IMG/VR virus record: IMGVR_UViG_3300026522_000028
Coordinates: 1 to 64,000 of that record
Origin: a virus
Taxonomy: Duplodnaviria; Caudoviricetes
Length of the DNA stretch: 64,000 nt
Reading direction: 5' to 3' (one strand)
Shown: positions 46,402 to 46,875 of the stretch, piece after piece
Position numbering within the stretch: the stretch's first letter is position 1
Layout of the letters: each line of letters starts with the position of its first letter
Translations under genes and position numbers: made by a program
Notes under the pieces: model-generated
The model's database searches: none
What the model was told of the DNA's origin: nothing
Seen by the model: only the letters and a program-made list of their open reading frames with translations

Positions 46402-46875
46402 AAATCGCGGATGCTGCGTCTGCATCCACTTGCTGATTCTACGTCAGCCAACGTGTCTGTGTGTCCGCGCCGATCCGCCGATGCAGCGCTCGGGTCTTTT
46501 TCGGTTGCCCCTGTTCTAGAATTGACAACAACCCGGCAATATCGGGACGAAACCTTTACTCCCCGATGTCCTCCACCTAACGTCTGTCGAGGTAGCAACG
46601 TTCTCGTTGCCTGCGCGGGTAACCATGCCGCGCCATCGTTTCTGTCGCCAGCTTTGTTTACCGTCGTGCTGGAGCGACGCTTCTCCCGCGAGGTTTCTCA
46701 CATCGACCTCACCGATGCCTCGGCGCGGTACTCGCTTCGGAAGAACATGGTCGCACAAAGGCAATCCTGCTTATGCGCGGGTATACCAATGTATTCCAAG
46801 GATCGCTTCGAGGGAACCAAGCATCTCGATATACAATCATGGAGCGTAGCGACATGTTGCCGCAAGGCAACCAAT
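46402..46875 (-). ncRNA. Candidate large ornate ncRNA (~470 nt) upstream of the tRNAs
   Basis: Many hairpins including a nested helix; no credible ORF with RBS; lies between a late promoter and tRNA-Tyr. Confidence 0.45.

Follow-up and report, generated by a model that had tools for sequence, protein, structure and literature searches.

A previously uncatalogued family of structured RNA beside the tRNA genes of rumen and gut phages

The stretch of DNA analysed here, referred to throughout as the window, comprises 64,000 nucleotides of a Caudoviricetes phage and covers bases 1-64000 of a 76,180-bp IMG/VR virus record (IMGVR_UViG_3300026522_000028). Upstream of its TerS-like gene, the first of the late module on the minus strand, no credible gene is present for about 1.47 kb (from 45983 to about 47450), and within this interval we describe a structured RNA element of 382 nt that is followed directly by genes for tRNA-Tyr and tRNA-Met. 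A first-pass annotation had placed a large structured noncoding RNA of about 470 nt at 46875-46402 and regarded it as either similar to the known phage RNAs ROOL and GOLLD or a new class. The hairpins that it listed do exist in the sequence, the two tRNA genes do stand directly after the element, and covariation upholds a conserved unit; the extent, on the other hand, needs to be revised to 46780-46399, or about 380 nt. The idea of a new class has likewise held, given the lack of an Rfam match and the presence of covarying homologues, whereas membership of ROOL or GOLLD has not. We are highly confident that the element is a genuine conserved structured RNA, and on the comparisons made here it is a previously uncatalogued family of a kind already known, that of large folded phage RNAs beside tRNAs. 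The features of the locus are as follows.

46399-46780, minus strand: structured RNA element, type I, 382 nt (eight-variant alignment A8, RNAalifold)
46539-46680, minus strand: conserved core with helices H8, H10, H11, H12 and H13, common to types I and II (model R1)
46781-46875, minus strand: leader segment with the invariant hairpin GUUGCC/GGCAAC (46866-46851), outside the conserved RNA
46780-46781, no strand: junction where relatives hold a 166-amino-acid DNA methyltransferase (NPPF motif), a gene cleanly missing from the window
46312-46398, minus strand: tRNA-Tyr (GUA) (ARAGORN; Rfam tRNA, 51.9 bits)
46233-46308, minus strand: tRNA-Met (CAU) (ARAGORN; Rfam tRNA, 52.4 bits)

The extent of the element follows from a comparison with about 60 related loci (numbered with an L) from IMG/VR, JGI, ENA and Logan, for which the TerS-like protein, the large terminase TerL and the methyltransferase served as anchors. 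In L002, L010, L023, L024 and others, the 5' 95 nt of the region (46875-46781) and the 382-nt remainder stand about 565 nt apart, and the insert encodes the 166-amino-acid methyltransferase with its NPPF motif (L002:96-596; L023:1658-2158). The conserved noncoding block begins 1 nt past the methyltransferase stop codon, at CCGCGCAUA, which corresponds to window position 46780, and ends at 46399. Because the insert splits them from the RNA in these relatives, the 5' 95 nt are, judged by this arrangement, a leader or the 5' untranslated region of the methyltransferase gene and lie outside the conserved RNA; they are nearly invariant and thus give no covariation signal in either direction. It also follows that the long-range pairing UGUCGCU/GGCGACA, proposed in the first-pass annotation, is not integral to the RNA: its 5' half is about 565 nt further off in the relatives bearing the methyltransferase, and its 3' half forms the 3' strand of a local helix that covaries. 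The arrangement of the window, with the RNA and without the methyltransferase gene, is the commonest among the contigs read, and the element is identical in L020, L021, L022 and L025. Besides the clean absence of the gene, this type has a loop 13 nt shorter in the first hairpin.

At the other end, the boundary of the RNA is the same nucleotide in every variant, and what follows it takes one of two forms. In the window, in L002, L010, L023, L041 and L045-L050 and in all type II loci (see below), the last base of the RNA (46399) directly abuts the first base of tRNA-Tyr (46398), and tRNA-Met comes next. In the other variants, a strong intrinsic terminator follows the boundary; its 12-bp stem encloses a loop of 7 nt and precedes a T-run, and it starts with the same GGUGG as the tRNA and is succeeded by a Bro-N gene or by an IS605 tnpA/tnpB pair; such terminators in place of tRNA-Tyr are found at L024:1019-1055, L030:3020-3060 and L028:3395-3430. 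With the dimensions of a tRNA acceptor/T-arm minihelix and the shared GGUGG, the replacing terminator may be a remnant of the tRNA. As a tRNA and a terminator can each form the 3' end of an RNA, the two arrangements argue for a discrete molecule.

The structure was derived from alignment A8, consisting of eight distinct type I variants of 382-401 nt. These differ from each other mostly inside the hairpins, and the hairpins themselves are kept. The prediction shows hairpins strung one after another with one or two junctions among them, and the type I helices are located as follows.

46779-46752, minus strand: H1
46745-46739 with 46687-46681, minus strand: H3
46734-46730 with 46694-46689, minus strand: H5
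46729-46706, minus strand: H6
46678-46644, minus strand: H8
46633-46613, minus strand: H10
46611-46594, minus strand: H11
46592-46570, minus strand: H12
46567-46541, minus strand: H13
46535-46491, minus strand: H14/H15
46488-46468, minus strand: H17
46448-46432, minus strand: H19
46429-46407, minus strand: H20

Among the type I variants, H11 takes the form of four different stems whose loops differ too, H12 that of CCUC/GAGG, CCCC/GGGG and CCGU/ACGG round an almost invariant loop, and H15 that of GUUGUC/GGCAAC, ACUGUC/GGCAGU and GCUGUC/GGCAGC. RNAalifold on A8 yields 107 pairs, with standard pairs in 98.2% of the cells. Twenty-one of the pairs are changed on both sides, compared with 7.2 ± 1.6 in shuffled alignments (none of the 500 had as many) and with 0-3 in a slid control in which the 3' partners were moved by one to three columns. 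Several G-U pairs are invariant (in A8, for example, 200/217, 286/304 and 392/412) and would be C-A mismatches on the opposite strand, and the RNA strand is therefore the minus strand of the window. The individual helices of the first-pass annotation fared unequally: covariation supports GCGCGG/CCGCGC, GCAACG/CGUUGC and AUCGGG/CCCGAU; GCUGA/UCAGC and GGAUGC/GCAUCC are conserved, with no change or one-sided changes alone; the CAUCG/CGAUG nest is broken in L002 and L030; and CGUCG/CGACG is an alternative to H8, both of them fitting the changes in L024. A candidate pseudoknot between GGUUUC in the H13 loop and GAAACC near H5 has no covariation in either direction. A long-range closing helix, UGUU/GACA in the window and UUGC/GCAA in L024, stays tentative, since a single divergent sequence supports it and an extension of H3 competes with it in the eight-sequence fold.

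A divergent form, type II, measures about 490-510 nt against the 382-401 nt of type I, and it was absent from the derivation of the structure: the covariance model R1, for which only type I cores (46680-46539) were used, detects type II at 31-33 bits with E about 1e-6. The phages that carry type II have a TerS-like protein 88% identical to that of the window, and their RNA lies behind a 76%-identical methyltransferase and before the same tRNAs. While the type II core is only 52% identical to the window core, 27 of its 32 core pairs are canonical, 13 of them having changed on both sides. Across the 12 distinct core sequences, 16 of the 32 pairs are changed on both sides, compared with 1-6 in slid controls, and only two differences within type II are linked, which together exchange U-A for G-C. 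Each of the two types is predicted to comprise about 15-20 helices, conserved in the 5' core and variable across the 3' half.

Searches for known families gave little beyond the tRNAs. At gathering scores, Rfam had no match in the region of the whole-window search besides the two tRNAs, and neither ROOL nor GOLLD was among the matches; at E<=10 with lax filters, the 4227 families produced just the tRNAs and chance-level matches in 1.7 kb around the element (45900-47600), and the same was true at E<=1 for the variants L041, L024 and L030, again with no ROOL or GOLLD. The T-box model did not match the terminator-bearing L024 and L030, the genes downstream of which are Bro-N genes or IS605, and a T-box leader was rejected on these two grounds. 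Exact-pattern scans of IMG/VR with four patterns found L002 alone, and one exact pattern had zero matches in the GTDB genomes. Two weak R1 matches in 154 Selenomonadaceae genomes were discarded as false: L043 lies inside an ABC-ATPase gene (LSGGQ motif), and L044 appears coding as judged by eye. When the conserved loops were compared with the phage genome for complementary stretches, nothing above chance 9-10-mers turned up. Because just two IMG/VR contigs carry the element, it seems unlikely to be among the 10,006 unnamed candidates of PMC10690425.

The surroundings of the element bear on its possible transcription. The late module on the minus strand consists of the TerS-like gene, a Bro-N/HNH gene, TerL and the portal gene, in this order, and the following features flank or lie downstream of the RNA.

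47120-47192, minus strand: late-promoter-like block, TTGCAA, 17-18 nt, CATTAT, with TTGATTAAAC upstream (recognised by repeat and conservation)
46041-46081, minus strand: terminator-like hairpin (7 + 4 bp) followed by UUUUAUUUU; fold of 46030-46135 (minus), z -2.1, function putative
45344-45982, minus strand: TerS-like gene, 212 amino acids, first gene of the packaging and head module
44368-42632, minus strand: TerL, after the Bro-N/HNH gene

The promoter-like block has a second copy at 27499-27426 (minus strand), 81% identical over 74 nt; it is kept in L003 and L008 and falls inside an 'up' block common to distant relatives. The block at 47192-47120 is likely a late promoter with an activator site, and the transcript holding the RNA likely starts there. 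With this block upstream and the strand matching, cotranscription with the late operon, as suggested in the first-pass annotation, is plausible. The terminator-like hairpin at 46081-46041 stands between tRNA-Met and the TerS-like gene and, unless read through, would make the promoter, the RNA and the tRNAs a separate transcription unit. Between the hairpin and the TerS-like gene, at 45983-46040 (minus strand), five or six tandem GAGGTAT/AGAGGTAT units reach into the start codon of that gene. Elsewhere in the window, positions 50113-50188 (plus strand) match the type II hammerhead ribozyme (Rfam RF02276, 40.0 bits; gathering score 37).

As for the phage itself, a 141-bp overlap between the ends of the record suggests a circular assembly. 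It has no close cultured phage, TerL identity being at most about 35%; among 50,697 GenBank phages no TerL exceeds 36%, and a blastn search against them gave tRNA matches only. In bacterial genomes, TerL has its relatives in Anaerovibrio, Mitsuokella and Selenomonas ruminantium, which points to a probable host among the rumen Selenomonadaceae.

The position between the promoter-like block and the late genes is not always occupied by the RNA. In relatives with TerL 75-88% identical (L003-L009), the promoter block, the block that follows the tRNAs and the late genes are all present and the RNA is absent. The genes downstream of the RNA vary as well, being tRNAs, a Bro-N gene or IS605, and in L019 an IS605 element takes the place of the RNA and both tRNAs. 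IS605-type pairs of tnpA (Y1 transposase) and tnpB were seen in this hotspot at L019:1222-2747, L030:3196-4726 and L035:1149-2679, those of L030 and L035 being placed just past the terminator T-run. L008 holds a different methyltransferase and different tRNAs in the slot; a tRNA with a four-base anticodon (gcag) occupies the equivalent position in this IMG/VR viral contig (L008:4776-4850), and the Anaerovibrio genome locus L011 has a tRNA with the anticodon CUA, labelled 'Pyl' by ARAGORN, at 6268-6355. These unusual tRNAs are possibly a frameshift suppressor and an amber suppressor, respectively.

In L004 and L005, contigs that by their IMG/VR names may be prophages from isolate genomes, the same slot and strand hold an unrelated block of about 485 nt that is free of open reading frames (L004:3985-4470; L005:5285-5780; 74% identical). 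A two-sequence fold of this block has 122 pairs and none broken; 26 of them are changed on both sides, compared with 0-3 in slid controls, and in the terminal closing helix five of the seven pairs are compensated. Rfam gives no match for the block at E<=10, the window genome contains nothing similar to it, and it is probably a second new large RNA. Because relatives without our RNA hold IS605, other genes and tRNAs or this unrelated block, the slot seems to be a place for exchangeable cargo, to which at least two large, folded and mutually unrelated RNAs belong.

Several known systems resemble the element in part. ROOL (RF03087) was first seen in cow rumen metagenomes and resides in phages and prophages, often beside tRNA genes; it averages 581 nt, is spread over three phyla and is possibly cotranscribed with tRNAs (PMC5737381). 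ROOL also forms RNA-only cages and, according to the same cryo-EM preprint, the expression of GOLLD rises during lysis (bioRxiv 10.1101/2024.12.08.627333). Like ROOL, our element is a large multihelix phage RNA adjoining tRNA genes; unlike ROOL, it is 382-510 nt long and has a very narrow distribution, with no match to the ROOL model and with pseudoknots not established. With GOLLD (RF01998) it shares a phage or prophage site near tRNA islands and a division into one conserved and one variable half, but the conserved half is the 5' one in the element and the 3' one in GOLLD, the GOLLD model does not match, and the element is half the size or less, many GOLLD RNAs exceeding 800 nt. The tRNA cluster of phage T4 encodes 'species 1' and 'species 2', stable non-tRNA RNAs of unknown function that are cut from a shared precursor by the tRNA-processing enzymes of the host. 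They are similar in being stable RNAs of a phage tRNA cluster, but are only about 140 nt long. Finally, put of phage HK022 and EAR are far smaller folded leader RNAs that are needed by their operons. The likeness here lies in an RNA fold that precedes terminators within the leader of a long operon; the difference is that relatives whose late operon is the same do without our element.

Taking the above together, we think it somewhat probable that the element is a late-transcribed accessory RNA, released as a discrete molecule by RNase P or by termination and acting in trans. Transcription would proceed from the late-promoter-like block at 47192-47120, the RNA forming part of a long leader, and a 3' end always formed at the same nucleotide would produce a discrete molecule. 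Where tRNA-Tyr follows, as in the window, the 3' end would be created by RNase P cleavage, and in the other variants by the intrinsic terminator starting at the boundary. By analogy with ROOL and GOLLD, the element would then be accessory, moron-like cargo, most likely acting in trans as a stable RNA. A number of points weigh against this interpretation. Its transcription, processing and action in trans are all deduced from sequence, and no observation directly favours a trans-acting rather than a cis-acting RNA. The RNA has no defined 5' end; promoter prediction gave nothing just ahead of it, and it may therefore exist solely within a longer transcript. The distribution is narrow, the element having been seen only in one group of rumen and gut metagenomic phages, with two IMG/VR contigs, and the R1 search of 154 Selenomonadaceae genomes did not find the element. 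As regards the structure, the A8 fold was derived from the same sequences that were used to test it, the type I variants are closely related and in part mosaic, so that cell counts overstate the independent events, and the alignment A11 was fitted to the model, favouring pairing. Furthermore, the first-pass annotation had named a fold no better than that of dinucleotide shuffles as a ground for refutation, and such a fold was seen: the minimum free energy (MFE) of 46402-46875 (minus strand) is -172.3 kcal/mol compared with -164.4 ± 6.3 in the shuffles (z -1.25), and 11 of the 100 shuffles are as good. The opposite strand has z -1.65; a further value for type I is -1.38 and that for type II is -2.08, and these are likewise unremarkable. 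As the covariation is strong, we take the comparison of MFE with shuffles as uninformative rather than refuting.

Other functions for a conserved RNA in this place deserve consideration. It is conceivable, if doubtful, that the element belongs to a new class of large 'ornate' phage RNAs with an RNA-only function, for example as a self-assembling particle or a ribozyme, and is one of several large, mutually unrelated RNAs exchanged by this phage group at a dedicated slot behind its late promoter, the L004/L005 block being a second; this would again be by analogy with known RNAs. Rather unlikely, though still to be taken seriously, is a cis-acting leader of the late operon, either a processive antitermination RNA resembling HK022 put and EAR, by which RNA polymerase would pass the terminators behind it, or an aid to the stability or processing of the leader or the tRNA precursor. 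The element does have a late-promoter-like block before it and terminator-like hairpins behind it, in the orientation of the late genes, and in L028 and L037 a strong terminator comes directly after the RNA with the next gene about 20 nt on and no promoter between, such that read-through is needed. The relatives L003-L009, however, lack the element despite having the same promoter block, 'post' block and late genes, and L019 has lost it to IS605; because relatives with the same late operon do without it, the element cannot be required for late transcription. In addition, the half proximal to the terminator is the variable part, and known antitermination RNAs are far smaller than 380-510 nt. 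An improbable alternative makes the element the 3' untranslated region of the methyltransferase mRNA, controlling the stability or expression of that gene and having no role of its own. Such a view would account for the RNA beginning 1 nt past the methyltransferase stop codon in most variants, with no predicted promoter between, and for types I and II each going with their own methyltransferase variant, the two being 76% identical; it sits badly with the window type, the commonest arrangement, which retains an intact RNA without the gene, with a 64%-identical methyltransferase in another phage that has genes directly behind it and no such RNA, and with the size of the methyltransferase family, at least 3829 members. 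An obligate partnership of the RNA with the small methyltransferase was rejected for the same reasons, namely the large family, the RNA-less homologue and the gene-less window type.

The remaining explanations deny the element either its RNA function or its novelty. It is very improbable that the region has no RNA function at all and is a protein gene or a decaying spacer with chance hairpins. An antisense open reading frame of 198 amino acids (46348-46944, plus strand) spans the RNA, and public assemblies call it a 181-amino-acid gene on the opposite strand (L020, L021 and L025); in some variants one frame is open over the entire element, and the MFE z-score is, as given above, not significant. 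The longest open frame nevertheless switches strand and phase among the variants, and no frame on either strand stays open across them; the antisense frame is broken in L002, L024 and type II; indels between variants are of 1, 2, 9 and 13 nt and thus not multiples of three; and substitutions are concentrated in compensating pairs. Neither the region nor the antisense frame has a match in Pfam or PHROG. With its frame not conserved and no such match, the antisense frame was rejected as a real gene, and the 181-amino-acid hypothetical protein of the public assemblies is probably an annotation artefact. That the element is a diverged member of ROOL, GOLLD or another catalogued family is, finally, near to refuted: while the context alone, a large, multihelical RNA adjacent to tRNAs in a rumen phage, would fit ROOL or GOLLD (PMC5737381), none of the 4227 Rfam families matches the element above chance level (E<=10 on the window region, E<=1 on L041, L024 and L030), and the length of 382-510 nt departs from the approximately 581 nt of ROOL and from the more than 800 nt of many GOLLD RNAs.

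It is rare for a bacterial or phage RNA of 400-500 nt to have many conserved helices, and several of those known are without an assigned function. ROOL and GOLLD were connected with phages and tRNA clusters from their discovery on. The present family offers natural comparisons, as it occurs with and without the methyltransferase gene, ends at a tRNA or at a terminator, and is replaced among sister phages by IS605 or another large RNA. The likely host family has culturable members (Selenomonas, Mitsuokella and Anaerovibrio), and for this reason the contrasts could become experiments. More generally, finding a third unrelated family in the same setting suggests that phage infection poses some problem to which a large folded RNA next to tRNAs is a repeated answer, and that this is not a peculiarity of two families.
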